A stretch of DNA of 64,000 nucleotides from a virus. Location: the IMG/VR virus record IMGVR_UViG_3300042885_000570, positions 21,149-85,148 of that record. One strand, given 5' to 3'. Under the pieces are notes generated by a model. It did not search any database. It was not told where the DNA came from and saw only the letters and a program-made list of their open reading frames with translations. The position numbers and the translations under genes were made by a program. This document shows positions 5,917 through 31,681 of the stretch, piece by piece; the first letter of the stretch is position 1; each line of letters opens with the position of its first letter.

Positions 5917-8517
5917 TTAGGTAAACATAAATGGGAATACATTAGAACCCATTACATAACCCATTTGAGTTGTCCCACCTTTTTTACCATATAGTTTCCC
6001 TATCATATCTGGATCAACTGCATCACCACTACCACTACTATTATATCTTTTAATACGATCTTTTAATAATATTTGTTGTGACTCAGGATCTAACTTAGAA
6101 TTTTGTAGTTGCATTGCATACTCATCTAAACTCATTTCATCAGTAGGTTTATAATTTTTACCTTTAGTAAAACGCATTCTACCACCGCTTCTTGGATCTA
6201 CTGCATATTGAGGATACATCTGATTCATTGCATCAGTTTTCATCATATTAGTTGTCAATGTATTTTGAGCATCTGCAAGATTATGTCTAAAAGCACTTTT
6301 AGTATTTTTAAATTGTTGATTAAGACGTGCAACATCATCATATAATCCTTTATTCTGTGCTTGATTATATCTTTGTGCCTCATTCATTACTTGTGCATTA
6401 TTACCTGCAAACTGATTAGCAACACCAACATTCATATTATTATATCTACCAAGTGTATCAGCTGCTTGTTTAGCAGCTTGACCTTGTGTTGATGCAGATC
6501 TTGCAGAAGCTGCTTGTGGTCCTGTAAATTGAGCAAGGGCAGTATTAGCAATATTTGCTTGTTCAGATTGAGCTGCTAATTCTCTTGTAGGATCATAAAA
6601 AGTAGGAGACATTAATTGTGGTTCATATCTTGCTGCCCATGGTAAAGTTTTATCAACATTAAAATAATCACCTGCTGCAAGAGCTAAATTTAATTTATCT
6701 TGTTTCCATGCTTCTGGTTGACCTGCATAGGCTGCTTCTGGAACATCCTCTGGATTAACATCAGCTGCATCTGCTTCAGTAGTATCTTCAACAGGTTGCG
6801 CTTCATTTTCATATTGAAACTCTGGTTTACCACCTACTGCATCAAAATGCTCAATTCCACCTAATATATCATTACCCATTGATGGTCTATATTCACCTTC
6901 ACCTAATGAATTTTCAATACCTTTTGTAACATCAGCATAATTCTTTTTATAGAAGTCTTCTGATAATAATGCTTTATCATCTTCTGGTACATCTTTGATT
7001 CCTAGGGTACCTGCAAATTGTCTTCTAGCTTGTGCTTTTAATTTAGGATCTTTTTGTATACGGTCAACTTCATCAAATGCCTCATCATCTGACATACCTA
7101 AACCTTTAGCTTGCTCATATATGAATCTTTGTTCATATAAGTCAGGAGTAAATCCTGCAACAAATGAACCAGTATTTTTTATTTTACCTGTTTTTGAATC
7201 AAGTTTAGAATAAGGACCTGTTGCACCTTGACTAACAACTTTATATTTATCCGTACCTAATACACCTTTAGCATTAGTAGCATTAAGAGCTCTTGATAAT
7301 TTTACTCTATCTTTAAAATCACCATCCCACTTACCTGTAATTTTTATATTACCATTTTTATCTGTAGTAATACCTCCAGCTTTTATTCCTTTTGCAATAA
7401 TAGCATTAGCATCCTCAATAAGTTGAGCATTCTCAGGAGATTGTTTTTTAAATTCTTCTACAGATATACCTAAAGACTTTGTATCTGCAGTAGGAGTTTT
7501 ACCAAGTGTTGCTGCTGTTACTTTCTTGTATGTGCCATCTTCTTGTTTAACATAGTCACCTGCTCTAGTATCAGTAGTAATTCTATCTCTTACAACAGCA
7601 TCTTTAGGTAAGTTATCTTTAGTGTAAACTTTTGATTTTACTTCACCTTTACTTTGGTATCTATCTAATGAACCACCGTTTCTGTATAATTGTTGTCCAG
7701 GATAACTATAATCACCTGTCATTATACCATATTGAGCCATAGGAGGTACTTCCATCATCTCTTCTTGAGGATTCTGCATACCTTGAACTTGCTCCATAGA
7801 TTCTTCTTCAGGAGATTGCATACCCATACCTTGGTTTTCATATGGATTCTGCATTGCTTGTGCATTCATCTCAGCTTCAGGTTCTGGTTTTTGTGGTATC
7901 AAATCTTCTTCATTGATACCCATTGCCTCCATATATGGTTGAGCTACTTCAGGGATACCTTGTGGGAATCCTTTCTTAGCTTCTTGTGCTAATGCTAATG
8001 CACCTAACTTAAGATTAATATTCTTAATCATTAACTCTGCAGATTTCTTATCTATCTTATCTGAGTTAGGATCTTCTAATATTTTTCTATACTTATTGAT
8101 ATCATATGGTTTTGCTAATTCAGCTGGAGTATATCCTTTTTTACCACAGGCTTTTGCAAACATTTTTAAAATATTACAATCAGTAATCTTCATTGCTGCA
8201 GTATCACTAAAAATAAATGTACCGTCAGGTAAGTTTAATGGTACACCGCCTTCATGATGTCTTTTACCACTAATGATCATATGCTCAGTGAATCCATCAC
8301 CATTGATATCACCAAATGCGGTTTCCCCACCTTCAGCTTCTAGATTAGCTTCATCTCTTGGAACTTGTTTCAAGTATCTTGTATTCTCAAGATGTCTTGA
8401 TGCAGCATTCATATCAGCTCCACCAAAACTAATTACTTGTTTATTTAAATTGTTACCTGTAAAACCTCCCGATTTTGCTTGTGGTAATCTCTTAGTTATT
8501 TTTACTTTAAAGTGCAT
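5917..8517 (-). CDS. Cargo/internal virion protein (866 aa)
   Basis: N-terminal EAEGGE...GKRHHEGGVP...IFSD motif seen in crAss-like cargo proteins, Q/N/A-rich helical C-half, several x-x-x-GG motifs. Confidence 0.65.
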   Translation of the reverse strand: MHFKVKITKRLPQAKSGGFTGNNLNKQVISFGGADMNAASRHLENTRYLKQVPRDEANLEAEGGETAFGDINGDGFTEHMIISGKRHHEGGVPLNLPDGTFIFSDTAAMKITDCNILKMFAKACGKKGYTPAELAKPYDINKYRKILEDPNSDKIDKKSAELMIKNINLKLGALALAQEAKKGFPQGIPEVAQPYMEAMGINEEDLIPQKPEPEAEMNAQAMQNPYENQGMGMQSPEEESMEQVQGMQNPQEEMMEVPPMAQYGIMTGDYSYPGQQLYRNGGSLDRYQSKGEVKSKVYTKDNLPKDAVVRDRITTDTRAGDYVKQEDGTYKKVTAATLGKTPTADTKSLGISVEEFKKQSPENAQLIEDANAIIAKGIKAGGITTDKNGNIKITGKWDGDFKDRVKLSRALNATNAKGVLGTDKYKVVSQGATGPYSKLDSKTGKIKNTGSFVAGFTPDLYEQRFIYEQAKGLGMSDDEAFDEVDRIQKDPKLKAQARRQFAGTLGIKDVPEDDKALLSEDFYKKNYADVTKGIENSLGEGEYRPSMGNDILGGIEHFDAVGGKPEFQYENEAQPVEDTTEADAADVNPEDVPEAAYAGQPEAWKQDKLNLALAAGDYFNVDKTLPWAARYEPQLMSPTFYDPTRELAAQSEQANIANTALAQFTGPQAASARSASTQGQAAKQAADTLGRYNNMNVGVANQFAGNNAQVMNEAQRYNQAQNKGLYDDVARLNQQFKNTKSAFRHNLADAQNTLTTNMMKTDAMNQMYPQYAVDPRSGGRMRFTKGKNYKPTDEMSLDEYAMQLQNSKLDPESQQILLKDRIKRYNSSGSGDAVDPDMIGKLYGKKGGTTQMGYVMGSNVFPFMFT

Positions 8518-8526
8518 AATACAAAA

Positions 8527-10680
8527 TTATAAGTATTCTAATTCTCCTCCATTAGCTAGGAAGTCGTCTATCTCTTCTTGAGTCATGTATTGAATATCCT
8601 CATCTTCATCTTCAGTGTTACCACCCATAGCATAAACACCACCACCATATCTTGAAACATCTTTAAATCCAGTATCATCAGGTCTAAAATTACCAGCTTG
8701 ATCATAATCACCTCTATCATCTTCATTACTAATACCAAAATTAGATTCAGCTGGCTTTAAATTATTTATCATCTCATTCTCTTGTTTTTTAGCATTAATT
8801 TGATTTGCTTGATCTGCAAAACCTTTTACTAAATTTTCACCTAATATAATATTAGCACCTAAATTACTTCTATCTTTTTTAACTTGAAAATCTTGTGAGT
8901 AATTATCTAGTGCTTCAGTAGAAGGTTTGTTATTTACTTGATTAGGATCCATAGTAATATTATCTGGCTGCATACTTTCAGGTACTGTAGCTTGAATTTG
9001 ATTACCAGTTACATCTTTTGTAGGGGCTTTATCAAAATAACCTTGAAGATTACTAATACTCATGTTATTAGCATTAGGGTCAAAACCTACTTCAGTACCT
9101 ATTTGTGCTCTATATAATTCAGGAATAGAAACATCTCCACCATATTCTTTTTGTTTATTACTTAAAGAAGAAGCCTGGTTAGCTATTGCTTGTGCTTTAT
9201 TAGCATCACCAAATGGTACATAACCTGGATTACTTTGTTGTATTCTTGCAACTTCTTTAGGATCATTAAATACATCTGCATCTTTATTACCTAAGAATCT
9301 ATTAAGTTGTGCATCATCTCTTCTTTCTCTTCTTTGAGCACGTGCATCCATTGGAGGATAATAAGGCATATCACTTGCTTGTGTTGCAGCAGGAGTTGTA
9401 GGTTGTGCACCTTGAGGTATTTCAGGTACCATTCCTGACCTAGTCATACGTGCACCCAATTGCTTTATACCAGGAATACCAGATCTCATCATCATATCTG
9501 CAACAGGTTGTCTATTACCTTTTCTGTCTTGAGCAGCGTATTGAGCATCAAGTGTTTTTGCTTGATCTTCTGTAGGCATTTTAATTTGTGGTGTAGCACC
9601 CGCTGCTGTTGCATTTGGATTACCATAATTTACAGTATATGCTTTTGGTCTACCTAATAATCCTCTTTTAGTTACATCAACACTTGTTACTTGTCTACCT
9701 GCAAGATTAGGATTAACTGCTGCTTGACCTGTAGCAGTATAGTAAGGAGAATTAACTGCTTGAACATATTGTCTACCTGATCTTTTAGGCATTTTGAAAC
9801 CACCTTCAGCATATTCATTATAATCTATATCACCATCTTGATACATTTCATCAGCAGATTCATTATCTCCACCACCAATGAATTTATATAAACCGGAATC
9901 AGTATCTGTAAAACCACCAAATTGTTCTCTATTAAAATCTATATTTGTACCTACTTGTGGATTATCAAATATATCATGTATACCAGTCGCATATGCACCA
10001 ATGTGATGCATTAGATTTTCTTTATCTGGTTGATTTTGTTGAGCACCTCCATTTTGGTATCTACCATACTGAGATTCAGCTGCTTGTTTTAATGCTGCTT
10101 CATTAGCTGTATTTTTAACAGCACCCAAGAATCCTTTTACATGTGATTCTCTACCATTTAATACATCATTAGTACCTGGAGAAGGCGTATCACCACCTTG
10201 ACCCATTTTAGCAAACTTAGTATACTCTTTAATAAAACTTCTTTTACTAAGTTTAGAACCACCTTGTTTCATATAGTTAGCTTCATCTTCTGGAGTATCT
10301 TCAGTAGTTGACATATCTATATCAGTATTATACATAGCTGCAAGTTGTTGCTGTCTTGCTTCTTCCTCAGCTGCTTCTTGTTCTTCAAGTAAAGCTTGTT
10401 CTTCTTCTTGTGCTCTTGCTTGTTCTTCTGCTGCAAGTTGTTGCGCTTCAACAGATATAGTATTTTCATTTAAACCAAGGTTATCACTAACACTTGTTAT
10501 GTATTCATCAGCAACGTCTTCATCAATACCAGCACCAGCTAAGTCATCTCTTAATGCATCAGTATCTCCATCAAAGTCATCAGATGACATTTTTTGTGTA
10601 AGATAAGATACTATTCGTTGTTGTTGAGTAGCTTGGTTTGATTGACCACCAGCTTTATATACTCTTACTCTCTTTTTCAT
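8527..10680 (-). CDS. Low-complexity internal virion protein (717 aa), GG-punctuated
   Basis: Long ORF with acidic and Q-rich segments and about 12 GG-type motifs; synteny with cargo genes. Confidence 0.55.
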   Translation of the reverse strand: MKKRVRVYKAGGQSNQATQQQRIVSYLTQKMSSDDFDGDTDALRDDLAGAGIDEDVADEYITSVSDNLGLNENTISVEAQQLAAEEQARAQEEEQALLEEQEAAEEEARQQQLAAMYNTDIDMSTTEDTPEDEANYMKQGGSKLSKRSFIKEYTKFAKMGQGGDTPSPGTNDVLNGRESHVKGFLGAVKNTANEAALKQAAESQYGRYQNGGAQQNQPDKENLMHHIGAYATGIHDIFDNPQVGTNIDFNREQFGGFTDTDSGLYKFIGGGDNESADEMYQDGDIDYNEYAEGGFKMPKRSGRQYVQAVNSPYYTATGQAAVNPNLAGRQVTSVDVTKRGLLGRPKAYTVNYGNPNATAAGATPQIKMPTEDQAKTLDAQYAAQDRKGNRQPVADMMMRSGIPGIKQLGARMTRSGMVPEIPQGAQPTTPAATQASDMPYYPPMDARAQRRERRDDAQLNRFLGNKDADVFNDPKEVARIQQSNPGYVPFGDANKAQAIANQASSLSNKQKEYGGDVSIPELYRAQIGTEVGFDPNANNMSISNLQGYFDKAPTKDVTGNQIQATVPESMQPDNITMDPNQVNNKPSTEALDNYSQDFQVKKDRSNLGANIILGENLVKGFADQANQINAKKQENEMINNLKPAESNFGISNEDDRGDYDQAGNFRPDDTGFKDVSRYGGGVYAMGGNTEDEDEDIQYMTQEEIDDFLANGGELEYL

Positions 10681-10740
10681 ATAATGTGTAATATATATTA
10701 AATATAATAATTTTTGGTTTACTCAATAAACATTAAAAGT

Positions 10741-13700
10741 TTAATCAAGTTCTTCTACTGTATATCCTGCTTTTCTTAATAATGCTATAGTATGTTCATC
10801 TAATTCATCTTCCCAAACTTCTTCTATTGTACCACCTTGTTTTAAATTTCCTTTTATAGCTTCACCTGTTGCTCCTATAATATTAGGAATAAACCCTTCT
10901 TTTAAATATTCAGATGGTGCCCCCATTGCATCTGTAGCACCTTTCATTATTGCCTCTGTTCTTGTAGGAAGATCTATATAGTCATTAGGATCACCATTTT
11001 CTAAACGTATTTGATCAGCAACATCTTGATCTTTTACATAACTCATAGGATCATAAGTAGATCCAGCAATTGCACCAGCACCAATACCAGTTGTTAAAGC
11101 AGCAGCACCAAATTTTTCTCCTACTTTTTGTAAACCTGCACCAGTTGTAGCCCATTGAAACTTATTGTTCATAAGCTTTTCTTTATCAATAGGCACGTAT
11201 CTATTTGAAAAAGGTAATCTTCTATTCAATGATACACCAGCATCTGTTAAAGGTACTTGTTTTACACCAGTACCCCAGTTATTTTGAATTGGATATGATG
11301 CATTACCTTTTCTAAAATTCCTACCTATAAAACCTTGTTGATTAGCAGAACCCAAACCTATTTTAGAACCATCTACTGAACCATCTATTTTAGCTGAGTA
11401 TATATCTGATGCATTTGTTTTACCAACTTTTGTTGTTAAATCAGCATCTGGACCTTTTTTAACTAATCCTTTGGCTTTATTGAATAATGATTTAGATTCT
11501 ACTAGTTTACCATTTTCAATTGAGTTACCTATTACATTACCTAATGGTTTAATTGCACCTTCTAATTTTTTACCATAACCTGGAACCCAGTTTAATGGAC
11601 TGATTCTATTCATTGCTTTATTTAAAAAAGGCATGTAAGATTTATCAGCAATATTTGCTATTACTTTATTCTTAGGACCAATAGCACCTTGAATAAGTTC
11701 AGGAGAGAAACCAGCATTTAAGTTACCTCCACCTGTACTTGGTGTACTAGGAGCTCTTTCAGGTATAAATTTAGCTAACTTACCTTCTGCTTTATTAAGT
11801 ACATTTGCACTTCCTTTTACAAGGCCGCTTGCAGTTTTAAGACCTTTTAATCCAAGTATTCCTAATCCCATTTCAGTTGCACCAGATGCAACATTTCCTT
11901 TATTCATTTCATTTCTTGCATGTGCTCCCCAGTTTCCAGGATTAAAAGTATTAAACACATCATTGACACCTAAACCTCTTGACTGCTTAGTTGCACTTAA
12001 AAATTTATCATAGTCAGGACTTTCAGTATTCATTAATCCTTCATGCATACCTGGTATATAAGCTTGATCACCTGATATAAAATTTGCTGCCATTAATAAG
12101 GGTTGAGATAAAGCTGCTTGTGATCTATCTACAATTTTTTCCATTGTAGATGCTTTATTATATTTGGCCCATTGTTTTTTTTCAAATTCTGCTTGAGCTT
12201 TTTTTCTTTGTATTTCAGCAAGTGCAGCCGCTTCTTTTTTTGCCTTTTGTTCAGCCTTGTATTGTGGTGACTTAATTATTGCGGCATTATTTATATCACT
12301 TACTGCTTGCTTAGGAGTTACTGTACGTGTATTATCACTTACTTGTGTTTTAGGCATACGCTTCATCAAGTCATTTTCTTTTTGCTTTGCTTGATTTTGT
12401 ATATTTTGTTGTCTATTTTGTTCTTGTAGTTTACGGAATTGCTCTAATTTTTTAGCATTAGCTACTGAAGGTGAAGTATCTGTTTTTTTAACTTTTGGTT
12501 TTGGACTTGATGGACCTTTTAAACCATAATTAACTCCTGAGTAAACTGTTTTACCACCTTGTGCTTTAGCAAGTTCATGTTGTACATAACCTCCTTCTTT
12601 ACGTATTTGTGATACTGGTTGTTTAGTACCTCTTTGTTTAGCTTGATACTCAAGAGTTTTTCTTGTGAACTCATCAGCATCTCTTTTTCTTATTTCTTTT
12701 TCAACATCTTGTTGATTATACCCTTCTGGCATTTCCATATTTTCACCATGATATAGAGTAGGATTCCAATTTCTATAATGAACAGGTTTAACATATGGTC
12801 TAGCAGGTATGATAGTTTGCTCAGGTGATACAAATCTTTCTATTGGTTTTAATGGTAATGTAGAAATAGGTTCAGTAGTAGTATTACTAGTAGTATTAAT
12901 AGATTTTGGCTTATCTTTTTTGGGTACAAACTTTACAGGTTGTACTGGTTTTTTATATTGTGGATATACAACTATTCCATTAATCACTCTACTACCAATA
13001 GGTCTAATATTTGGATTAATTTTGTCTCCACGTAGTGTCCAGCCATCAATACTAGGCCAGTATTTATCAATGTTGTATTTATCAAAATCAAGAGATACTC
13101 CAGAGTAACCAGGTGCACGAGAATCCCATTCACCAGGATAAAATTTTCCTTTATCTTTAAAAGGTGCTGTAAGATTGTACATTTTTAAACTATCGTCTTG
13201 CATTTTCTTTAGATACTTAAACTTTTTAGGGTCACTTATCTCTAATGGTTTTTTAGATTCTACATTTTTTGATTTAATAGGAGTATTGTTTGAAACAGGT
13301 TGTTTTAATACAACAGGTTGTACAGGTTTTTTAAATACAGGATAAACAGTCTCTCCTTTATAATTAGTTTGTTTATCTTTTTTTTGTCCTATAGGTTGGA
13401 TTTTAGAATAAGTCCACCCTTTAATCATGTCTTTATCCAGAGGTTGTATTTCTTGTGCAGGTAAATTCTTTAATCCTTTTTCACTATTATTATACAAACT
13501 CAAACTATCAGCATACATCTTATTTCTAAAGGCATACTCTTTAGGATCAGATATTTCTAATGGTTTTTTAATAAGACCTTTCTGTGCTTTAACTAATTCA
13601 TGTTGTACATAACCTCCTTCTTCATATTCAGATATTTCTTTTACTACATAACCTCCATCTCTATATGCTTGTATTTCTTCATCAGTAAGTTCTAAGTCTT

Positions 13701-14625
13701 CATATTCATCATTATTCTCTCCACCTTCTTGCAAGGTATATTTTAAAGTTAGATTTCCAGTTGGATTAAATAGACTTCCTGGTACCATAGTATTATTAAC
13801 TCCAGCACTAAAATTAATATGATCACCAAGATTTTTATTATAACCTACACCTGTTGTAAAACTTGGATTAAATTTACTACCTGGTTCTGTATAATTTTTT
13901 AATGTAGCATCAGCATCAAAGTTTTTAAATCTTTTATTATAACCTAATTCTGAATATAGATTACCCATAGCATTTTTATTAAAAAATGGCAACTCTACAT
14001 TAGTACTTCCATGTAATCCAGATTTATGTTGAAAGTCAGCACCTAGTCCAATTGCTTGTCCTGGTGCTCTATCTTCATTTTCTTGAATATATGTATATAA
14101 CCATGGATTACTATGTACTCCACCATCTTGTTCAGTAGGTAGATTGTAGCCATAGTTTAATTCATAGTGGCTTAATGGATTAGGATCAAGATTAATAGGT
14201 CCAAGTTTAGAACCTCCAGATTTAAACTCAGCATTAGGATCAAATATCTTACTCTTTTTATTTTGAAATAATTTATTTTTAGCAAATAATTTATTAGTAG
14301 CAGACATGCTTTTAGAGTACTTCTTACTTTTAAGAGTACCACCTCTTCTACCTATTGGTGTTTCATCTACATAAGATGCACCTTTGAAATTACGGTTTTG
14401 TTCTGGGTACATTATAGCACCTGGTCCTACATTAGGTTGAGCCCATATTGGATGATTAACACCTTTCATAGTAATCTCATTACCAGGTACTCTTACTGGT
14501 TTTCCTTGATTAGCAGGATTCCAATAACCCATTGGATCAACAGTTATATCTCTTGGCTTTGCTGGTGCTTTTGCTTTACCTAATTCTGATACAGCTTTAG
14601 ATAATACTTTCTTATTGTATGCCAT
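10741..14625 (-). CDS. Mosaic internal virion polyprotein-like protein (1294 aa)
   Basis: Modules separated by GG motifs, internal duplications (KKPLEISDPK x2, EGGYVQHELxKAQxG x2), hydrophobic segments near the C-terminus. Confidence 0.55.
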   Translation of the reverse strand: MAYNKKVLSKAVSELGKAKAPAKPRDITVDPMGYWNPANQGKPVRVPGNEITMKGVNHPIWAQPNVGPGAIMYPEQNRNFKGASYVDETPIGRRGGTLKSKKYSKSMSATNKLFAKNKLFQNKKSKIFDPNAEFKSGGSKLGPINLDPNPLSHYELNYGYNLPTEQDGGVHSNPWLYTYIQENEDRAPGQAIGLGADFQHKSGLHGSTNVELPFFNKNAMGNLYSELGYNKRFKNFDADATLKNYTEPGSKFNPSFTTGVGYNKNLGDHINFSAGVNNTMVPGSLFNPTGNLTLKYTLQEGGENNDEYEDLELTDEEIQAYRDGGYVVKEISEYEEGGYVQHELVKAQKGLIKKPLEISDPKEYAFRNKMYADSLSLYNNSEKGLKNLPAQEIQPLDKDMIKGWTYSKIQPIGQKKDKQTNYKGETVYPVFKKPVQPVVLKQPVSNNTPIKSKNVESKKPLEISDPKKFKYLKKMQDDSLKMYNLTAPFKDKGKFYPGEWDSRAPGYSGVSLDFDKYNIDKYWPSIDGWTLRGDKINPNIRPIGSRVINGIVVYPQYKKPVQPVKFVPKKDKPKSINTTSNTTTEPISTLPLKPIERFVSPEQTIIPARPYVKPVHYRNWNPTLYHGENMEMPEGYNQQDVEKEIRKRDADEFTRKTLEYQAKQRGTKQPVSQIRKEGGYVQHELAKAQGGKTVYSGVNYGLKGPSSPKPKVKKTDTSPSVANAKKLEQFRKLQEQNRQQNIQNQAKQKENDLMKRMPKTQVSDNTRTVTPKQAVSDINNAAIIKSPQYKAEQKAKKEAAALAEIQRKKAQAEFEKKQWAKYNKASTMEKIVDRSQAALSQPLLMAANFISGDQAYIPGMHEGLMNTESPDYDKFLSATKQSRGLGVNDVFNTFNPGNWGAHARNEMNKGNVASGATEMGLGILGLKGLKTASGLVKGSANVLNKAEGKLAKFIPERAPSTPSTGGGNLNAGFSPELIQGAIGPKNKVIANIADKSYMPFLNKAMNRISPLNWVPGYGKKLEGAIKPLGNVIGNSIENGKLVESKSLFNKAKGLVKKGPDADLTTKVGKTNASDIYSAKIDGSVDGSKIGLGSANQQGFIGRNFRKGNASYPIQNNWGTGVKQVPLTDAGVSLNRRLPFSNRYVPIDKEKLMNNKFQWATTGAGLQKVGEKFGAAALTTGIGAGAIAGSTYDPMSYVKDQDVADQIRLENGDPNDYIDLPTRTEAIMKGATDAMGAPSEYLKEGFIPNIIGATGEAIKGNLKQGGTIEEVWEDELDEHTIALLRKAGYTVEELD

Positions 14626-17600
14626 TATCTGAGTGATATTTGATTTTTACTATTACTTAATTTAACTATCATGTTGACATCCTTAGAATCAATTTTACTC
14701 AAAAATAAGAAATTTAAATAGTGTCTGAATTTTTTTCTTTCTAATTGTGGCTTATTATAGTTTAAGTTAACTGCATTTAAAGTTTTAATATAACCATTTG
14801 ACTGTGTATTCCATATTACTTCTTGAATATAGTTACCTGCAAGAATTGTTGTACCTGGAACTAGTGGTCCAGTTGGAGGATAATTAGAACCTATTGGGAA
14901 CTCTCCTCTATTTTTAGTTATATCCCAGAACTGGTTAAACCTATATTTGTTTTCCTCTTTAGCAAATAAGATATCAATAGATGTTGGATTTACTTTTGGA
15001 TACGTATCAGCTAATGTAATATTATTCTTAGGAAATAAGTTAAGATTTAAGTATCCAGAAACTTGCTCAGAATTATATATTACTGCTTTATCAAAGTTAA
15101 AATCTAATACATGAAATTGATCAACACAATTTAATGTACTATTTTTATAACATTCAAGCATGTATTCCATAGATTTTAAAGTAGTAACTGTTTGTCCAGT
15201 AATTAATGGAATCTCAATCTCAAATGGATATTGTACACCATAAAAGTTACAGTAACTATCACATACATAATTATGTTTCCATAGTTTACCTCCTTTAGTA
15301 GACATAAAGTATTGTCTACCAGGAAACACAAAGTCAGGAGACCAATCATGATGAGAGACCCAATAATCATTTTTAGGGTCAAAACTTGTAGTCCAAGATG
15401 CATTTTCAAATATAAGGGGATCACCTAAGTCTACTTTAGTAATACCATTAACTAAAAAGTAATTACTATATTCAATATATTCTACTGTAGTATTTGCTGG
15501 TAAATCTTTTCTTAATTGATAATCTTTTTTAGAGAAATAAATAACACCATTGTAGTTATCATACACGGCTTGTGTACCAATACCAGCAACAGGATTATCT
15601 GTATGTGGATAATTAGGAAAATCTTCAATAAGCTTATAGGGTAAGAATAAACTAAACCACCATTTCATACCTTGTTGAGATATTTCTTTAAGACCACCTT
15701 CAAATGCAAATACTCTTCCTTGATTTTGAGAGATATAATACATACCTGCTGGCGTAGCAATAACACCAAACTTGTTTTGAGATGAACCGTATTCATATTC
15801 AGCATCAGAAATTGTTACATTCTGAGGAGGATTAGCAAATAATCCACCATCACCTATTGTAATCTTAGTGCCTAAATCTGTTTCAAGAGTATCAACACCT
15901 TGATAAACTAAAGGACTAGCATTCTGGAATGTAATAAACATACCTGTTTTAGCATATGCTTTTATACTAGTAATTCTATTTTTAAAATCTTTATAGTTAT
16001 TTACAAGATATACAAACCATGAATCTTTTGATGATTCATTTTGTTGAGGTAATGAATATATAACTCTATCAGGATAGTAAGTATAACATAACTGAGATAC
16101 AGTAGGATTATAATATCTAGACTGTAAATTACCTTGTGAAAAGTATTGAGTAAATACTTTAGATATACTTAATGAATAGTCATATGCATAATAGTTACCT
16201 CTTGCAATAGTATCAGGGTTCATATTAAACATAGCATTCAAATCAGTATATGTATTATGATCATAATGTTGTTCATATACTGCAGTACCGGGTTGTCTAA
16301 AATCTACTAATACATCTGACTCAACAAAGAAATCTCTTACTGATGAATTAGCTAAATAAAAGTAAGCATCTTTAACACCAAACAATCCTGGATAATCACC
16401 TTCATTATCATCATTGTAATTATAATCTTTCCAATCAAGTTGGTAATATGATCTTGGTAACAAACCAGATCCAGGAGGTGGAGCAATTATATCAGCTAAA
16501 GAAGTAGGTGTTAAATCAGCTACATCATATAGTTGACTGTTGACCCAGAATCTAGGTTCAGCAATCATACTTCTTAAAATGTAGTTATACTCATATCCAT
16601 CTGGTTGGCCGTATAACCAATCATAGAAAAAGAACATGTTATTCTTTTCAGTGTATCTATTAACATAAGTATCACCTCCAAAGAATACTGGAGTCTGATT
16701 AATTACATTTAATGGTACTAGAACAGCTCTATTACCGGCAGGTGTATTTATATTACAATAAAATGAGCGCACTGTAACTGGTATATTTTCTCCATTATAA
16801 TTTAACTTTTGCTCTGATGGAGTAATTGGTATTTGTTTAATGGAATCAAGTTGACCATATTGGTTTCTTAATCTTACTTTCATACCACCATATTGACTTG
16901 CAATAGGTAAGTTAAACTGATTTGATTTTTTATCTGTAGTATTAACAGGAAGACCTGCTATTACTGCAGTACCTAGAGTAACCAAAGATTTATCTTCTAC
17001 ACCTGGAATTGTAATAAAATCAGGACCACCAACAGTACTATTTTTACTAGAAGTTCTAATTGTAACTGTTGTTTGTCTTTTAAGATTATTTATTACATAG
17101 TTTATACCACTGAATGGTTTAACATTTTGGATATTATTTTTTAAGTAAAAACTATCTTCAATATTAAATCTTTGTACCTGGGATAAATTAGGTGCATTAA
17201 AATTACTATAAAAACCTTCTGCAATAGATTGTAATGCATATTGTCTATATGGTATAAATGTATAGAATAATTTTATTGCAGTATTAGCACCTTCAGCAAA
17301 ATAAAATATAGATTGCTGTAAATAATTTAAAAGTCCAATTGGACCAGCATATTTATATTTTGGTATTTCTTTTGAATATGTTTTTCCATTAATACCAATT
17401 GCTCCTGCAATAGCTGCTGTACCCGCTGCTAATTGAAAAGGTGTATTAAATGCATTATATATTGAAAGAGCAGGAATTGTATCTTTAAGTGGATTAAGAG
17501 AATCAACTAAATAACCACCTAATGTAAAGTATTGATTTATAGCAACATCATATGCAGACTTTAATGGTTGAAAAATACCTCCTGCTGTACGTGCTGCAGC

Positions 17601-19847
17601 TGCACTAATATCTCCACCACCTGTTGCTGGACCATTTGTAGATTCTGTTATAGACCATTTACCACCATTTTGAATTGCAGTTTCAATTACACCTGCTAGT
17701 GTTGCAACAATAACTACAGCATCAGCTAGTAATTTAAAGTTAGGATGTTGATCTGGTTCTTGAAAGTATTGTACTGATGTACCAGATAATGAACCATATA
17801 GTTTTAACTCAGTAACAGATAAATATGGATTTCTAAAGTTAGTATCAGGAGAATGAAAAGTTACCATATTAGATGGTATATCTTGAAGAGTATCATCCGT
17901 TAATCTGATATAAGGATCATTGTTACCTGCTACGTGTCCACCTATTGAACTTGAGTAAGGTGTAATAGTATTGAATGGATAATTGGGATATAGTCCTTTT
18001 CTACCTGCATTATTATTACCCTTGATTTCATAACTACGTAAGTTATTTAACATACCTTTAGCTATGATAGATCTGTTACCTTCTCTTGAACCTCTTAGTA
18101 TTTCATAACCTACTATTCCTGGTATATCAAAACCATCATTATCTTTAGGTAAAATAATATTTACAAAGTTGACACCCATCAGTCTAATAGCTTGTCCGCC
18201 TTGTGCATAATGGTTTGTTAAATTAGAACCATTGGTTATATTATCAGGAAACTTGTGATGTCTTATTGGTTTACCACATAAGTCAAACTGAGGATCAGTT
18301 GTTCCTGTCCAACAATGAGATGATGCATTCCATACTTCATCTTTATTATCTGGATACTTTTCAGTAGATTCCCAGTAACCCATAGTACCTTGAGCCTTAA
18401 TTATACCACCGTCTGGTAAAGTTCCAGATGCAGCATTTGCTGTAGCTGTATTATATATTTCAAATACTCTATCATCTGTATTAATTGCATTTTGATCACT
18501 TAAAGGTGATGTTTCAGGTAATGTACCTCCACCTGGAACATTAAAGTCTACTGGAGCTCTACCTGGTATATGATATGATGCAGACTTATCACCGGTATTA
18601 TAAATCCATCTTATAAAGAATGTATATACTTCATCTCTTAAGTAACTAGTATTACTTCCCCCTTGTACATAATAATCTGCAGGATACTCAACAGAAACCC
18701 ATTGAGCTTGTATTTGATTAGCTAAAGGCTGATAGTTAAAATCAAACTTAGACCTTGGAGCTATTCTTAATAGATAATTATTAACCTCAGTAATTTGATC
18801 TGATGTTTCATACACAGCATTTCTCAAAGGTATTTGCTCAATAGGAACAGCTATTAAATCAGTTTTAATCTGATCAAGATGTATTACTGAAGTCTTAGTA
18901 GAATATATACCAATTCTTTTTGCTACTGCACCTTGGTTAATAATCTGTACCACTACTAATTCAAATTCATCAAAATTAGTTGAGTCAGCTGTAATAAGAA
19001 TATCTATAGCTCCTTGTGAGTTATCAACACTCCAGATAGGTTGTGTATTACTTGGTGAAAAATAATCTGTAACTTTTTGACCGCTTATAGTGTATGCAAT
19101 AGTAGCAAAGTAAGACCCATTTAATAATACCCCACCACCAACTCCTGGTTTAACCTGAATTGTCGGTGTTTGCATTAAACGTGCAAGTCTTATATCTTCA
19201 CAATTTAATGTAGTTAAGTCAGTACATATTATACAATCATTAATTGTTTGACAGTTCTGATTCCAGGAAACACCAGGCCACTGTATTGTAGCAGATGTAC
19301 CATTACTATATGTATTATTTCCAATCCATTGATATGTATCTCCTGGCCATAATGCATCATCACCAATATTTAAATATCTATCTGGATTATTTCCATCAGC
19401 AAAGTATACAGCCCAAGAGCAATCTTCTTTTTCTCTTGAAGCACCAGTTATTAAATATCTTTTGTCAAAGTTTAAACAAGCATCTTGTACAATAATTCTA
19501 TACTTACAAGTATCTTCTTCATATAATCCTATTTCATGTCCTGTAGGTAAACCTATACCATTAGATGGATAAGCTACTGTAAATATTATCCATTTATCAG
19601 AATATAAATGTATTGTACCTATAATATATTTTTTACCAGATAGTGTTGCACCTGCTTCACCACATAAGACATTAGATACTTCATTAGATAAAGTACCTAT
19701 GTTACCTTCAATAGTATTGTTCACAGCATTACGTGCATGTGTCCACATACCTTCAGCAATGAATGTAGGATCTGAATCTTTATTTAATCCTTTTACAAAG
19801 GTGTTTGTTTTATTTTGACTAGTATCTTGTATATTTTTCTTTGCCAT
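14625..19847 (-). CDS. Tail stabilisation / muzzle protein (1740 aa)
   Basis: N-terminal FVKGLNKD...WTHARNAVN...GTLSNE, YLRDEVYTFFIRW...YHIPGR, IRHHKFPD and FFGGDTY motifs typical of the crAss-like P22 gp10-like stabilisation protein; follows ring proteins. Confidence 0.8.
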   Translation of the reverse strand: MAKKNIQDTSQNKTNTFVKGLNKDSDPTFIAEGMWTHARNAVNNTIEGNIGTLSNEVSNVLCGEAGATLSGKKYIIGTIHLYSDKWIIFTVAYPSNGIGLPTGHEIGLYEEDTCKYRIIVQDACLNFDKRYLITGASREKEDCSWAVYFADGNNPDRYLNIGDDALWPGDTYQWIGNNTYSNGTSATIQWPGVSWNQNCQTINDCIICTDLTTLNCEDIRLARLMQTPTIQVKPGVGGGVLLNGSYFATIAYTISGQKVTDYFSPSNTQPIWSVDNSQGAIDILITADSTNFDEFELVVVQIINQGAVAKRIGIYSTKTSVIHLDQIKTDLIAVPIEQIPLRNAVYETSDQITEVNNYLLRIAPRSKFDFNYQPLANQIQAQWVSVEYPADYYVQGGSNTSYLRDEVYTFFIRWIYNTGDKSASYHIPGRAPVDFNVPGGGTLPETSPLSDQNAINTDDRVFEIYNTATANAASGTLPDGGIIKAQGTMGYWESTEKYPDNKDEVWNASSHCWTGTTDPQFDLCGKPIRHHKFPDNITNGSNLTNHYAQGGQAIRLMGVNFVNIILPKDNDGFDIPGIVGYEILRGSREGNRSIIAKGMLNNLRSYEIKGNNNAGRKGLYPNYPFNTITPYSSSIGGHVAGNNDPYIRLTDDTLQDIPSNMVTFHSPDTNFRNPYLSVTELKLYGSLSGTSVQYFQEPDQHPNFKLLADAVVIVATLAGVIETAIQNGGKWSITESTNGPATGGGDISAAAARTAGGIFQPLKSAYDVAINQYFTLGGYLVDSLNPLKDTIPALSIYNAFNTPFQLAAGTAAIAGAIGINGKTYSKEIPKYKYAGPIGLLNYLQQSIFYFAEGANTAIKLFYTFIPYRQYALQSIAEGFYSNFNAPNLSQVQRFNIEDSFYLKNNIQNVKPFSGINYVINNLKRQTTVTIRTSSKNSTVGGPDFITIPGVEDKSLVTLGTAVIAGLPVNTTDKKSNQFNLPIASQYGGMKVRLRNQYGQLDSIKQIPITPSEQKLNYNGENIPVTVRSFYCNINTPAGNRAVLVPLNVINQTPVFFGGDTYVNRYTEKNNMFFFYDWLYGQPDGYEYNYILRSMIAEPRFWVNSQLYDVADLTPTSLADIIAPPPGSGLLPRSYYQLDWKDYNYNDDNEGDYPGLFGVKDAYFYLANSSVRDFFVESDVLVDFRQPGTAVYEQHYDHNTYTDLNAMFNMNPDTIARGNYYAYDYSLSISKVFTQYFSQGNLQSRYYNPTVSQLCYTYYPDRVIYSLPQQNESSKDSWFVYLVNNYKDFKNRITSIKAYAKTGMFITFQNASPLVYQGVDTLETDLGTKITIGDGGLFANPPQNVTISDAEYEYGSSQNKFGVIATPAGMYYISQNQGRVFAFEGGLKEISQQGMKWWFSLFLPYKLIEDFPNYPHTDNPVAGIGTQAVYDNYNGVIYFSKKDYQLRKDLPANTTVEYIEYSNYFLVNGITKVDLGDPLIFENASWTTSFDPKNDYWVSHHDWSPDFVFPGRQYFMSTKGGKLWKHNYVCDSYCNFYGVQYPFEIEIPLITGQTVTTLKSMEYMLECYKNSTLNCVDQFHVLDFNFDKAVIYNSEQVSGYLNLNLFPKNNITLADTYPKVNPTSIDILFAKEENKYRFNQFWDITKNRGEFPIGSNYPPTGPLVPGTTILAGNYIQEVIWNTQSNGYIKTLNAVNLNYNKPQLERKKFRHYLNFLFLSKIDSKDVNMIVKLSNSKNQISLR

Positions 19848-29845: not shown

Positions 29846-30493
29846 TTATCCTTTTACGCGTTTAAGTCTTGGATTTTTAGCTTTAGCTTTAGCACTAGCT
29901 TTTCTAGTTGATGCAGCTAATATAGCTCCAGCAGCTTGTTTACTTACACCTTGTTTAGCAGCTATCTTAGACTGAACAGCTTTGAAACCTGGATGAGTTG
30001 CTCCACCTAATTTTTTTACTGTACTCTTTGGTCCAGCATATTCCATTTTACCAGTTGACTTATTAATCTTATAATTATCTTGATTTCCTTTTAATCTTTC
30101 TTTTTGATCAAGTTTTAATTGTTCAAGCTTTAATCTTTCTTGTTCAAGCCTTAATGTTTCTCTTGGATCCATATGAGGCGGTTTAATTAATGTTGGTTTT
30201 ACATTTGAATTACTCCAAGGTCTATACTTTGTTGTATCAGTGATTATACCATCTTGAGCTTTAGGTATAACTTTTTTAGTATTACCCTTTGCTTTCATTT
30301 TTGCACCAGCGATTCTATCTGCTTTAGATTTACCAGGATTATTATCTATACCAGCTATAATAGATAGAATACCAAATGGACTAGTTCCACCAGATTTCAT
30401 CATAGGTTTTCTTTCAGGAGCACATGCACCTGCAGCTGTTCTTACTTTAGTATTTTTGCAAGAAGTCTTAACTGCTCTATTAGTAGTTGCCAT
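29846..30493 (-). CDS. Basic modular protein (215 aa)
   Basis: K/A-rich; modules FGILSIIAGIDNNP and HPGFKAVQSKIAAKQGV each follow a GG motif. Confidence 0.6.
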   Translation of the reverse strand: MATTNRAVKTSCKNTKVRTAAGACAPERKPMMKSGGTSPFGILSIIAGIDNNPGKSKADRIAGAKMKAKGNTKKVIPKAQDGIITDTTKYRPWSNSNVKPTLIKPPHMDPRETLRLEQERLKLEQLKLDQKERLKGNQDNYKINKSTGKMEYAGPKSTVKKLGGATHPGFKAVQSKIAAKQGVSKQAAGAILAASTRKASAKAKAKNPRLKRVKG

Positions 30494-30495
30494 GA

Positions 30496-31395
30496 CTATT
30501 TCTTTTTAGATTTAACTACTCCACCTTTCTTTTTTGTCATGTCATATACCTTCTTAGCTACATAACCTATAGGACTAGCCATCACACCTGCTTTGAACTC
30601 TGCTGCTGCACTTCTAGGTTTTGGTTTTGCGTCTCCAGCTATTTTACTTTTAAGGGCACTATATTTTTTTATATTAGCTTCACGCATCTCATCTACTGAA
30701 GGTCTTGGACCAACAGTTTTTTTAACTGGTCCTGTTGCACCCTTCTTTGGTGTATAACCACTAGTATTTACTGGTGATGCTGTTGCACCTCTCTTTGGTG
30801 AATAACCACTAGTTTTAGTAGATGGAGATTTAGTATTTATAACAGTATCTTCATATTTAGTTTTAGGTCTTTGTTTAGGAATAGTAATACCCACCATAGG
30901 ATCACCAAATTCTATACTTGGTTTTCTAACTGGTTCAGTACTTTTAGGAGCAGCTGTTGTTTTAGCACTTACGCCAGCTCTTACTCTTGATGAATCAACT
31001 TTTGACTTAATACCTTTTGGGTTAGGACCTTTAGGAGAAGTAGCGTTTATTCTTGCCATTGCTGCTCTTGGAGTTTCACCAGGTCTACTTGTTGGTGTTG
31101 TTTCAAACATTCCTACACCAGTACTTTTTACTTCTCCTTTTGACTGGTATTTTGTAATTGATTTTTTAACCATTGCATTTCTAGCATCATTAGCTTTTCT
31201 AAAAGTAGTTAATACATGTTCTTTTTTAGTTCCACCTTTTTTCATAGACTCAGGACCTGTTTGACCTGCACCTGTAAAATATGGTATTCCAGCTGCAAAC
31301 GGTTTTTTACCTGGACCCATAGCTTTAGTAGCCATACCACCTTTAGACATTTTTTTCATTGTACCCCCACAAGAAGCGCATCCTAACTTTTTCAT
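30496..31395 (-). CDS. Very basic K/P/T-rich protein (~299 aa)
   Basis: Likely start MKKLGCASCGG at 31395 rather than 31419; SPKR/TPKK motifs; KKGG motifs. Confidence 0.6.
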   Translation of the reverse strand: MKKLGCASCGGTMKKMSKGGMATKAMGPGKKPFAAGIPYFTGAGQTGPESMKKGGTKKEHVLTTFRKANDARNAMVKKSITKYQSKGEVKSTGVGMFETTPTSRPGETPRAAMARINATSPKGPNPKGIKSKVDSSRVRAGVSAKTTAAPKSTEPVRKPSIEFGDPMVGITIPKQRPKTKYEDTVINTKSPSTKTSGYSPKRGATASPVNTSGYTPKKGATGPVKKTVGPRPSVDEMREANIKKYSALKSKIAGDAKPKPRSAAAEFKAGVMASPIGYVAKKVYDMTKKKGGVVKSKKK

Positions 31396-31406
31396 AATAT
31401 ATAAAT

Positions 31407-31679: not shown

Positions 31680-31681
31680 GG

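Follow-up and report, generated by a model that had tools for sequence, protein, structure and literature searches.

Gly-Gly tags of three probable cargo proteins of a crAss-like phage look more like uncut couplers than protease cut sites

Three adjacent open reading frames (ORFs) on the minus strand of the 64,000-nt DNA analysed here (the window) encode proteins of 1294, 717 and 866 aa punctuated by Gly-Gly (GG) motifs, and these motifs look more like uncut couplers between successive cargo proteins than protease cut sites. The reading adopted, in which the three ORFs encode cargo (ejection) proteins of modular build and GG marks conserved, probably uncut docking and joint tags, is proposed tentatively, with a confidence a little short of even. 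At least three types of tag are distinguished, two of which seem to be each other's partner. The first would be an acidic C-terminal unit in which a short helix leads through a Gly-Gly (or Gly-Tyr) turn into a terminal strand; the second would be a basic N-terminal head, in which a Lys/Arg-Val-Arg/Lys-Ile-type strand is followed by Pro/Ala-x-x-Gly(-Gly); and the third would consist of joints of the form aromatic-x-x-Gly-Gly or aromatic-Gly-Gly, placed where disordered linkers connect the modules.

The source of the window is, on sequence grounds, an uncultured crAss-like phage (crassvirus), Pfam and PHROG scans having matched the muzzle, ring 1, ring 2, capsid and portal families. The muzzle gene (14625..19847, minus strand; 1740 aa; Pfam PF25731 crAss_MUZ, E = 1.7e-27; PHROG virion structural protein) provides the synteny anchor. 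The three ORFs directly follow it, at the gp45/gp46 position that holds the cargo genes in crAss001. They are probably carried in the particle and injected; none of them matches a Pfam family and the 1294-aa ORF also lacks a PHROG family. The same order of the three genes, with the same tags, is found in 5/5 relatives.

The preliminary description of this DNA had proposed that the three ORFs are punctuated by a short motif, [MYFLAK][KQRE]xGG, and the punctuation proved to be real, being both enriched over shuffled sequences and conserved in homologues. The three ORFs (2877 aa) contain 11 matches, versus 1.97 expected from whole-protein shuffles (0/500 reach 11), 1.91 from 30-aa block shuffles (0/2000) and 4.54 when GG is held fixed and its context alone is shuffled (7/2000). 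Against this excess of 11 over about 2, the window's remaining 46 ORFs (15,453 aa) contain a single match where 4.02 are expected, and four large ORFs located upstream in the genome (981, 2259, 4015 and 1099 aa) contain none. The pattern is also in excess in the basic block at 29.8-33.3 kb (5 versus 1.02 expected; 1/500), which encodes four lysine-rich small proteins (29846..33280, minus strand; 215, 307, 90 and 532 aa) with Lys-x-Gly-Gly near their ends. All 20 pentapeptides previously listed lie at GG sites (3 in the 866-aa, 9 in the 717-aa and 8 in the 1294-aa ORF) and the four single-Gly variants (AQYG, YQDG, AQIG and AQKG) are found in the translations, while the figure of "about 35" motifs is a loose count, the strict pattern giving 16 (11 + 5) and all overlapping GG giving 48 (34 + 14).

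Bare GG is only in mild excess in the three ORFs (34 versus 23.6 expected; 14/500 shuffles reach 34), with 10 versus 6.8 in the 866-aa, 13 versus 6.1 in the 717-aa and 11 versus 10.9 in the 1294-aa ORF, so that there is no enrichment of bare GG in the latter. This, together with the lack of conservation at GG sites 381, 553 and 562 of the 866-aa protein, would fit the explanation that GG has no specific function and is either a generic flexible turn or a consequence of composition in disordered proteins rich in glycine. Such an explanation is nevertheless very improbable: the pattern exceeds both the block and the GG-fixed shuffles, and the aromatic and basic positions flanking GG sites are 3- to 6-fold enriched. 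Because the pattern was defined after inspecting these ORFs, conservation in homologues is the independent test, and by this comparison the generic explanation appears largely refuted. Identity for GG glycines, for glycines elsewhere and for residues overall is 0.96, 0.57 and 0.51 in the 717-aa family (49 sequences), 0.79, 0.55 and 0.45 in the 1294-aa family (85 subjects), and 0.53, 0.34 and 0.30 in the 866-aa family (59 sequences); paired glycines are near-invariant over families with a mean column identity of 24%.

GG sites are also found in predicted disorder and at module boundaries. Segments with pLDDT <50 hold 10/11 GG sites of the 717-aa protein, of which they represent 66%, and 5/10 GG sites of the 866-aa protein, of which they represent 24%. 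In the 1294-aa family, 147/326 end points of high-scoring segment pairs (HSPs) lie within 8 aa of GG, versus 38.6 +/- 14.4 in a circular-shift null (0/2000), and 48/168 distinct end positions do so versus 20.2 (0/2000). The coincidence of homology breakpoints with GG therefore holds in this family, whereas the related test on alignment insertion hot spots is not significant in the 717-aa (5/12 versus 3.5; 435/2000) and 866-aa (3/12 versus 2.7; 927/2000) families.

The 1294-aa protein (10741..14625, minus strand) is modular, with 10 GG sites and 85 homologues of partial coverage. Its residues 1-24 (14554..14625, minus strand) contain no GG and are nearly identical in the listed N-termini of the family and in 5/5 relatives; they would represent a different kind of head, with a putative function. 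At its C-terminus, residues 1262-1294 (10744..10842, minus strand) form an acidic tail with GG at 1264, a Gly-Tyr turn and a terminal strand, the last 30 aa having a net charge of -8. The tail pattern is C-terminal in 38/86 members of the family and in 5/5 relatives, but it is also internal 55 times in the 86-member family and is therefore not strictly an end tag. In the window itself, an internal copy of the acidic tail unit is found at residues 311-330 (13636..13695, minus strand), with GG at 324 and another GG joint beyond it at 337; HSP ends of the family pile up at residues 330-360.

The 717-aa protein (8527..10680, minus strand; 70 homologues) is mostly predicted disorder (AlphaFold2 mean pLDDT 47.8) and contains 11 GG sites. 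Its basic head tag, residues 1-12 (10645..10680, minus strand; charge +5), consists of a basic strand, predicted at residues 5-9, followed by Gly-Gly; K2, V5, R6, Y8 and G11 are invariant (49 sequences), and the head pattern lies within the first 30 aa in 64/70 members and is never internal. The acidic tail unit, residues 699-717 (8530..8586, minus strand; last 30 aa charge -12), comprises a helix (701-709), Gly711-Gly712 and a terminal strand (713-716), both predicted by AlphaFold2 with a pLDDT of about 74. M699, I704, F707, G711, G712, L714 and E715 are invariant, and 69/70 C-termini are of one type, GG plus 5 residues.

The 866-aa protein (5917..8517, minus strand) belongs to a very large family (1846 cluster representatives, E <= 0.001) and has an AlphaFold2 mean pLDDT of 75.9, the regions predicted to be folded being at about 45-210, 293-540 and 600-830. 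Residues 1-18 (8464..8517, minus strand; charge +5), within a segment of pLDDT <50, form a basic head tag made of a basic strand, Leu-Pro and Gly-Gly at 17-18. Conservation is at least 90% at V5, I7, P12 and G17, and the head pattern occurs within the first 30 aa in 107/150 representatives and internally in 4. The folded N-terminal domain, residues 45-210 (7888..8385, minus strand; pLDDT >90), has E60, E62, E65, G84, H87, G90, G91 and P93 invariant, and in the predicted model GG63 and GG90, both inside this domain, are structural rather than joints. The C-terminal tag, residues 843-866 (5920..5991, minus strand), differs from the acidic tails in consisting of Lys-Lys-Gly-Gly followed by a hydrophobic Phe/Pro-rich end, a type of end shared by many of the 150 representatives; in related loci, the protein encoded next after such an end starts with a conserved Pro/Phe/Gln-rich segment.

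The acidic C-terminal tails (-8 and -12) and the basic N-terminal heads (+5 and +5) are complementary, each tail being followed by a head strand on the next-encoded protein. This pairing was followed in the best 80 of 363 confirmed related loci, 3 of which lacked a pattern-defined domain ORF and 2 an upstream ORF, yielding 60 distinct pairs, 56 with the domain at the N-terminus. Among these 56, head and tail occur together in 48 and are both lacking in 5, with head only in 2 and tail only in 1 (Fisher p = 3e-5); the three mixed pairs are near-variants missed by the search patterns. Among 44 distinct tail/head strings, 37 combine Glu at the third position after GG with Arg/Lys as the third residue of the strand, the sole tails with Lys (2) are paired with the sole heads with Gln (2), a close sister retaining Glu and Arg, and the sole tails without GG (2) are paired with the sole heads without the strand (2). 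The co-loss of tail and head is confined to one clade (77-100% identical) and the Lys/Gln charge swap amounts to one or two events within three close relatives; hence the tail-head association is largely phylogenetic. A counter-example exists at the other junction of one locus (L001), where the 1294-like tail has Lys where others have Glu and the following head is unchanged.

Fused forms of the 866-aa family, in which the N-domain is internal, represent 14/150 representatives. Within 150 aa upstream of the N-domain, the head strand is found in 1/14 and the tail unit in 0/14, so that at least one tag is missing at the joint in 14/14, and 13/14 carry a head at their own N-terminus. About 3.1 GG per 150 aa persist at the joint where split forms have tail and head, and therefore cutting flanking GG would leave both forms with identical mature ends. 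This observation fits an alternative raised in the preliminary description, namely that the ORFs encode polyproteins cut by a GG-specific maturation protease. Here, a phage or host protease would cut the GG motifs inside the phage head and so free modules together with small basic peptides, comparable to adenovirus/ASFV core maturation or T4 internal-protein processing; the head and tail tags would act as propeptides and might be lost once docking had occurred.

Cleavage is unlikely, but has several points in its favour. The motif is shaped like known GG-type protease sites (hydrophobic/aromatic, basic/polar, x, Gly, Gly), and its sites lie in predicted disorder, at homology breakpoints, close to both termini of the 717- and 866-aa proteins and of two lysine-rich proteins, and near the C-terminus of the 1294-aa protein. 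Among the small basic proteins, homologues of the 307-aa protein have Lys-x-Gly-Gly near the N-terminus (GG within the first 45 aa) in 28/29 and near the C-terminus (last 25 aa) in 17/29, and substitutions of either glycine are very rare in the 717-aa family. However, the head tag of the 866-aa family loses the second Gly in most relatives (kept in 17/58; Tyr, Gln or Leu in 28), conservation reaches both flanks of many GG sites, and GG63 and GG90 of the 866-aa protein, as well as GG711 in the 717-aa tail unit, fall inside confidently predicted structure. Furthermore, simple cut-and-discard gives the co-variation of tail and head no role. A scheme of docking followed by cutting would fit most of the same data as uncut docking.

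The search for a protease also argues against cleavage. Pfam and PHROG scans of the window ORFs, with Pfam only for the large upstream ORFs, recognised no protease other than a C92 amidase, which lies in a probable lysis cassette, and six-frame searches for Peptidase_C48, C5, C39, S78, S77 and ClpP gave matches in 0/5 records, including a 100% complete 121-kb relative. The adenovirus protease and ASFV pS273R process core proteins after Gly-Gly, and the present motif is similar in having a hydrophobic residue before Gly-Gly, on basic core-like and large virion proteins. It differs in that the hydrophobic/aromatic residue is three or one before the first Gly rather than two, and no Peptidase_C5 or C48 was found in the five records. 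In phage T4, internal proteins carry a capsid targeting sequence that is removed by the prohead protease gp21. The likeness lies in a short conserved N-terminal peptide common to unrelated head-packed proteins, including small basic DNA-associated ones, but here the motif is different, tags are also found at C-termini and internal joints, tail and head co-vary, and S77 (T4 gp21-type), S78 and ClpP are found in 0/5 records.

The cargo protein C1 of crAss001, gp45, offers a comparison. Like the cargo ORFs of the window, it is encoded just after the muzzle gene, its basic N-terminus precedes a GG at residue 20, and it has a Lys-rich, GG-bearing C-terminus and five aromatic-GG sites; it differs in being one protein where three are found here. 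According to the structural atlas, its cryo-EM segments are resolved at residues 214-245 (tail barrel) and 425-552 (portal wing) and are bound to portal wing and ring proteins, and gp45 is proposed to span from the tail into the capsid and to be ejected N-terminus first (Bayfield et al. 2023, PMC10172136; PDB 7qog, 7qoi, 7qoj, 7qol and 8ckb by sequence look-up). Of the four boundaries of these two segments, as given there, 3 lie within 10 aa of an aromatic-GG site (null 0.44; 18/5000). The site Ala425-Phe426-Gly427-Gly428 falls within segment 425-552, described as modelled in one piece, and the text of PMC10172136 lacks the words protease, peptidase, scaffold, cleav- and proteol-, which both speak against cleavage. 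On the side of cleavage, re-analysis of the only per-band gel data of crAss001, a test of little power, revealed no full-length gp45 signal. Homology between gp45 and the 866-aa family is not detectable (BLASTP best E 0.01 over 73 aa; hhalign probability 0.6%; no hit in a profile search against PDB sequences), and the evidence from gp45 is therefore by analogy. With no protease of a relevant family recognised in the ORFs and records searched, a gp45 site inside a modelled segment and a variable second Gly in the head, the proposal of GG-specific cleavage finds no support.

The binding of gp45 segments bounded by such sites to portal wing and ring proteins would also fit independent loading tags, i.e., uncut addresses for packing into the procapsid and tail that share a third binding partner (scaffold, portal wing, inner capsid or tail-barrel wall) and do not bind the neighbouring cargo. 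The tags are indeed terminal and confined to the cargo-position and lysine-rich proteins, with one pattern match elsewhere in the window, and Lys-x-Gly-Gly is also present on small basic proteins without an obvious tail/head partner. Tail-head co-variation would also result if both tags bound one third partner. This explanation is nonetheless quite improbable, as it leaves unexplained the succession of acidic tail and basic head at gene boundaries, the loss of the tag pair at fusion joints and the swap from Glu/Arg to Lys/Gln, and no third partner was identified. The earlier suggestion of a repeated capsid-loading tag comes closer to the data than cleavage does, in that conserved end and joint tags are seen on the packaged proteins, but these tags are of several types and not a single signal.

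Polyketide and non-ribosomal peptide synthases have docking domains at the ends of successive subunits. The likeness to the uncut couplers proposed here is a functional analogy only, in complementary C- and N-terminal tags, polypeptides in gene order and tags that are dispensable on fusion; sequences and setting are unrelated, and binding is here putative. Under the docking reading, the tail of each protein would dock on the head of the next-encoded protein, probably strand against strand with Glu facing Arg/Lys, and internal GG joints would act as flexible links wherever these modules share one covalent chain. The 1294-, 717- and 866-aa proteins may thereby be packed as a chain without covalent links, arranged in gene order, and might be ejected in this form too.

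Judged by sequence, the window belongs to a crAss-like phage; it is part of a source record of 85 kb, which CheckV estimates to be 72% complete. The virion module gave Pfam matches to PF24228 Ring_1 (1.6e-09), PF23898 Crass_capsid (2.3e-32) and PF25702 Ring_2 (1.5e-24), a portal match to phrog_6547 (5.7e-90) and a muzzle protein gene (14625-19847, minus strand; PF25731 crAss_MUZ, E 1.7e-27). Directly after the muzzle gene, and on the same strand, lies the 1294-aa ORF (10741-14625), followed by the 717-aa ORF (8527-10680) and the 866-aa ORF (5917-8517), beyond which come ORFs of 981, 2259, 4015 and 1099 aa, in that order. Pfam and PHROG scans returned no family match for the 1294-, 717- and 866-aa ORFs, and the 717- and 866-aa proteins have no tblastn match among 50,697 GenBank phage records, which also include no cultured relative with proteomics. 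In metagenomes, 1846 cluster representatives match the 866-aa protein at E ≤ 0.001. According to the text of Bayfield 2023 (PMC10172136), the cargo genes gp45 and gp46 of crAss001 occupy the same place, before the virion RNA-polymerase genes. The gp45 gene comes directly downstream of gp44, encoding the muzzle, as do the three ORFs here. Because of this synteny, the preliminary labelling of the three products as internal-virion cargo proteins is reasonable, and they are treated below as putative cargo. Two of the large ORFs beyond the window have matches of their own: the 4015-aa ORF (C1:5210-17257 of the source genome G000) to a circularly permuted YpsA SLOG domain (E 1.6e-06), and the 2259-aa ORF (C1:17275-24054) weakly to PD-(D/E)XK and integrase-SAM-like domains.

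The preliminary description had noticed that these proteins are punctuated by a short motif, [MYFLAK][KQRE]xGG, and all 20 pentapeptides that it listed are present in the translations. The pattern is enriched, as had been proposed, with 11 occurrences in the three ORFs against 1.97 expected from whole-protein shuffles (0/500) and 1.91 from 30-aa block shuffles (0/2000). When the Gly-Gly (GG) dipeptides are fixed and their context alone is shuffled, 4.54 are expected (7/2000). A lysine-rich block at 29.8-33.3 kb carries the pattern five times (1.02 expected), the rest of the window (15,453 aa) once (4.02 expected) and the four large ORFs upstream in the genome (981, 2259, 4015 and 1099 aa) not at all. 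Bare GG is mildly enriched in the three ORFs (34 against 23.6 expected) and unenriched in the 1294-aa ORF (11 against 10.9), hence the distinctive feature is the context of the GG rather than glycine content.

Since these very ORFs supplied the pattern, conservation is the proper test. In the 717-aa family (49 aligned sequences, mean column identity 24%), the 24 glycines of GG sites are 96% identical, compared with 57% for other glycines and 51% overall, and G11, G141, G162, G163, G211, G515, G680, G711 and G712 are invariant. The corresponding identities for GG glycines, other glycines and all residues are 0.79, 0.55 and 0.45 in the 1294-aa family and 0.53, 0.34 and 0.30 in the 866-aa family, in which the sites at 381, 553 and 562 are unconserved. 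Among family members, the third position before GG favours Tyr, Phe or Met by 3- to 6-fold and the residue that follows it favours Lys, Gln or Arg; 150 listed representatives of the 866-aa family (of 1846) hold 2.58 strict-motif matches per 1000 aa. The motif is a genuine and conserved feature, restricted to the cargo-position and basic proteins. That it is an artefact of composition or of turn formation, to which the mild excess of bare GG would be suited and the shuffled-context counts would not, is highly improbable.

One interpretation offered earlier was a single repeated capsid-loading tag. The presence of tags on the cargo proteins stands, while the idea of one kind gives way to three: a basic N-terminal strand (head), an acidic C-terminal helix-GG-strand unit (tail) and an internal aromatic GG linker (joint). 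The head of the 717-aa protein is a basic strand followed by Gly-Gly, in which K2, V5, R6, Y8 and G11 are invariant, and that of the 866-aa protein is a like strand followed by Leu-Pro-x-Ala-x-x-Gly-Gly. The head pattern falls within the first 30 residues in 64/70 members of the 717-aa family and 107/150 representatives of the 866-aa family, and is internal in 0 and 4, respectively. The tail of the 717-aa protein is predicted to comprise a helix (residues 701-709), Gly711-Gly712 and a terminal strand (713-716), with a pLDDT of ~74, and 69/70 relatives end in the same way, with GG plus five residues of one type. A unit of this kind, having a Gly-Tyr turn, closes the 1294-aa protein, which has an extra internal copy at residues 311-330. 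Joints take the form aromatic-x-x-GG or aromatic-GG within linkers predicted to be disordered. The net charge of the last 30 residues is -8 (1294-aa) and -12 (717-aa), and that of the first 20 residues is +5 in both the 717- and the 866-aa protein; therefore, an acidic tail always comes before the basic head of the next gene. Gene order and tags are unchanged in 5/5 close relatives.

Conservation across related loci is also high for two further ends, the C-terminus of the 866-aa protein (hydrophobic and Phe/Pro-rich; 5920-5991, minus strand) and the N-terminus of the 981-aa protein (Pro/Phe/Gln-rich; 5780-5851, minus strand), which may form a third junction of different chemistry. In about eight distinct loci (L011-L090, from the related loci), the ORF after the 866-like gene shares the first five or six residues of the 981-like protein and then becomes GIY-YIG-type, suggestive of the insertion, just past the 981-like start, of a homing-endonuclease gene or an intron ORF. 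In addition, the large terminase gene is directly followed, on its own strand, by a NUMOD3-motif, homing-endonuclease-like ORF (42601-43293, minus strand).

The lysine-rich block contributes a 307-aa ORF (30496-31419, minus strand), whose start is probably the ATG 8 codons downstream, because the cluster representative is 299 aa long. Among 29 homologues, GG occurs within the first 45 residues in 28, in the form Lys-x-Gly-Gly, and within the last 25 in 17. Most of them have a conserved N-terminal Cys-x-x-Cys right before the first Gly-Gly, which could serve for metal binding or disulfide formation on a putative DNA-associated head protein. Adjoining the block in the head module, a 150-aa ORF (28680-29132, minus strand) has matches to DUF5856 and to a PHROG whose annotation is starvation-inducible (Dps-like) regulator or DNA-binding protein.

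The placement of the GG sites differs between the proteins. Modelled by AlphaFold2 with its family alignment (A1), the 717-aa protein is predicted to be largely disordered (mean pLDDT 47.8; 482/717 residues below 50), and 10/11 GG sites lie in segments below 50, which make up 66% of the protein. Three confident folded parts are predicted for the 866-aa protein (pLDDT 75.9), and the 24% predicted to be disordered holds 5/10 GG sites (GG17, GG32, GG281, GG553 and GG847), while the invariant GG63 and GG90 fall within the predicted folded N-terminal domain. A Foldseek search of this model against the PDB gave no match at E ≤ 0.001. In a wide VIA-align search the best Z was 8.2, and all 50 listed rows fell within residues 589-789, a long helical hairpin; the two T7 tail/ejection-complex chains among them (Z 7.5 and 7.3) are within the range expected for helical hairpins.

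A check had also been proposed of whether homology breakpoints map to the GG sites, and it is positive for the 1294-aa family, where 147/326 internal BLAST HSP ends lie within 8 aa of a GG. Under circular shifts 38.6 +/- 14.4 are expected and 147 was never reached (0/2000); counted as distinct positions, 48/168 are near GG against 20.2 expected. The 12 largest insertion points show no significant proximity to GG sites in either A1 or the 866-aa family alignment (A2). Besides its GG units, the 1294-aa protein has internal direct repeats at residues about 338-480 and 425-565, including two copies of a ~27-aa segment starting Lys-Lys-Pro-Leu-Glu-Ile-Ser-Asp-Pro and two of a Tyr-Pro-x-x-Lys-Lys-Pro-Val-Gln-Pro-Val segment. 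A role of the joints as DNA-level recombination linkers was considered and rejected, 15 nt seeming too short for it.

The relationship between tails and heads was followed in the best 80 of 363 confirmed loci that contain a relative of the 866-aa protein, taken with 4-kb flanks. Leaving out three loci without an ORF having the N-domain pattern and two without an upstream ORF, 60 distinct pairs were obtained, 56 of them with the domain at the N-terminus. In these 56 pairs from the best 80 of 363 loci, 48 combine a head with an upstream GG tail, five have neither, two have the head alone and one has the tail alone (Fisher p = 3e-5), the three mixed pairs being near-variants that escape the search patterns. 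Among the 44 distinct tail/head strings from the same best 80 of 363 loci, 37 pair Glu, third after the GG of the tail, with Arg or Lys as the third residue of the head strand. Lys takes the place of Glu in just two, paired with the sole two Gln heads, and the GG unit is missing from just two tails, paired with the sole two strandless heads. The co-loss belongs to a single clade and the charge swap is confined to three close relatives, one of which retains Glu and Arg; between them they amount to no more than one to three events rather than dozens. The related locus L001 has, at the other junction, Lys in place of the tail Glu with an unchanged head.

Fused genes give a second view of this relationship. 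The 866-type N-domain is internal in 14/150 representatives, after a 717-like or other region, and within 150 aa upstream of it the head strand is found in 1/14 and the tail unit in 0/14. About three GG sites are kept at the joint and 13/14 have an N-terminal head of their own. Tail and head are thus both present when modules are separate, and at least one is missing when they are fused; loss of the pair on fusion is as a non-covalent coupler predicts. A counter-case is the 1294-aa family, in which the tail unit persists internally. A complex prediction for the 717-aa tail (residues 660-717, A1) with residues 1-215 of the 866-aa protein (A2) scored 0.03 against a mark of 0.32, in a run without controls, and speaks neither for nor against docking. 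Tags that each bind a third partner independently of one another, as loading signals, are an improbable explanation. A short conserved N-terminal peptide on packaged proteins, as seen here (64/70, 107/150 and 28/29), is shared with T4-type capsid targeting, but the prohead protease of that system (S77/S78/ClpP type) was not found (0/5 records).

The same fused forms would also fit propeptides, as cutting at the flanking GG sites would yield identical mature ends in both architectures. The polyprotein reading put forward at the outset, release by a GG-specific maturation protease, agrees with the form of the motif, which resembles a protease-site type, and with its placement at ends, at joints and in predicted disorder; its occurrence on small lysine-rich proteins is also in keeping with it. 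The part of this reading that failed is a protease of a known family, six of which were searched in six frames, alongside Pfam and PHROGs on the window ORFs and Pfam on the large upstream ORFs. None was recognised in this genome or in the four relatives searched with it, of which one is 100% complete: the clan CE cysteine proteases PF00770 and PF02902 (C5/C48; 0/5 records at E ≤ 1), PF03412 (Peptidase C39; 0/5 viral records) and the prohead protease types PF03420, PF04586 and PF00574 (S77, S78 and ClpP; 0/5 records). The nearest named look-alike of the 417-aa ORF between portal and capsid is a scaffolding protein, with a score (0.83) no better than chance. Within the window, a protease-like fold was recognised in one ORF alone, a Peptidase_C92 (permuted papain-like amidase; 47681-48172, minus strand). 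Because it adjoins a small membrane-protein ORF (104 aa, weak membrane-transporter match; 47681-48483 for the two, minus strand), the pair is probably a lysis cassette and C92 a lysis enzyme. Furthermore, 28/58 relatives have Tyr, Gln or Leu in place of the second Gly of the head tag, and none of the terms protease, peptidase, scaffold, cleav- and proteol- appears in the available text of the crAss001 atlas paper. That an unrecognised protease or one of the host cuts these sites, perhaps once docking has occurred, is opposed on several points and appears rather unlikely.

The crAss001 cargo protein C1, gp45, offers a structural comparison. By BLASTP, its best E value is 0.01 to the 866-aa ORF (over 73 aa), and 1.6 and 0.99 to the other two ORFs; the A2 profile gave no match at E ≤ 1 among PDB sequences including gp45, and hhalign assigned the 866-aa family and gp45 a probability of 0.6%. 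Because homology is undetectable, evidence from gp45 applies by analogy only. This protein has five aromatic-GG sites, and of the four ends of its two segments resolved by cryo-EM, three are no more than 10 residues from such a site. Its portal-bound segment is given as residues 425-552 in the text of Bayfield 2023 (PMC10172136). It includes Ala-Phe-Gly-Gly at 425-428, so that this site seems uncut, which is a further point against cleavage.

Whether gp45 is cut in virions was approached with the per-band MALDI peak lists of the crAss001 virion gel (Shkoporov et al. 2018, PMC6235969 supplement), fingerprinted against in-silico tryptic digests of 30 crAss001 proteins. About 11-12 of the 13 bands were cleanly identified: gp44 and gp34, with gp40, in bands 1 and 2, gp50 and gp47 in band 3, gp49 and gp44 in band 4, gp20 in band 5, gp26 and gp22 in band 6, gp22 and gp25 in band 7, gp25 in band 8, gp23 in band 9, gp32 in band 11, gp36 in band 12 and gp29 in band 13. 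In none of the 13 bands did gp45 or gp46 score above shuffled decoys, hence these data are silent on whether gp45 is whole or cut. As described in Bayfield 2023 (PMC10172136), mass spectrometry there was of a single excised band, hence without size information. That bands 1 and 2, both above 300 kDa, contain gp34 and gp40 as well as the gp44 muzzle suggests a tail-tip complex that resists SDS on this reducing gel; the disulfide-stabilised tail assembly reported in Bayfield 2023 (PMC10172136) may be related to it.

Tentatively, the most likely reading is that the motifs are a set of uncut end and joint tags. Each acidic tail would have the basic head of the following gene product as its docking site, and the cargo would be strung together in the order of its genes. 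It is possible, if doubtful, that the tags couple the cargo proteins into one thread, of which gp45 would represent the first three members, fused and shortened. Such a thread would comprise the 1294-, 717- and 866-aa proteins, then the 981-aa protein and the giant polymerase-bearing proteins, and would extend from the muzzle, by way of the tail barrel and the portal, into the capsid, gene order being the physical order in the particle and the order of ejection.

Crassviruses are among the most abundant phages known. A literature search joining crAss phages with Gly-Gly, diglycine or double-glycine found no paper on the motif. For crAss001, the sole solved structure, how ~5 MDa of cargo is loaded and passes a narrow tail ahead of the DNA is presented as an open question in the text of Bayfield 2023 (PMC10172136). 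Tail-to-head docking, if true, would explain ordered loading and ejection as well as the free interchange of split and fused genes, and a thread, if true, would mean that crassviruses have a built-in metering of the proteins injected ahead of the DNA. Cutting at the tags, if true, would indicate a phage maturation protease that has so far escaped recognition. In both cases, the tags are concrete, mutable handles for experiment, and the tag code could predict the packaged and injected proteins of uncultured phages.
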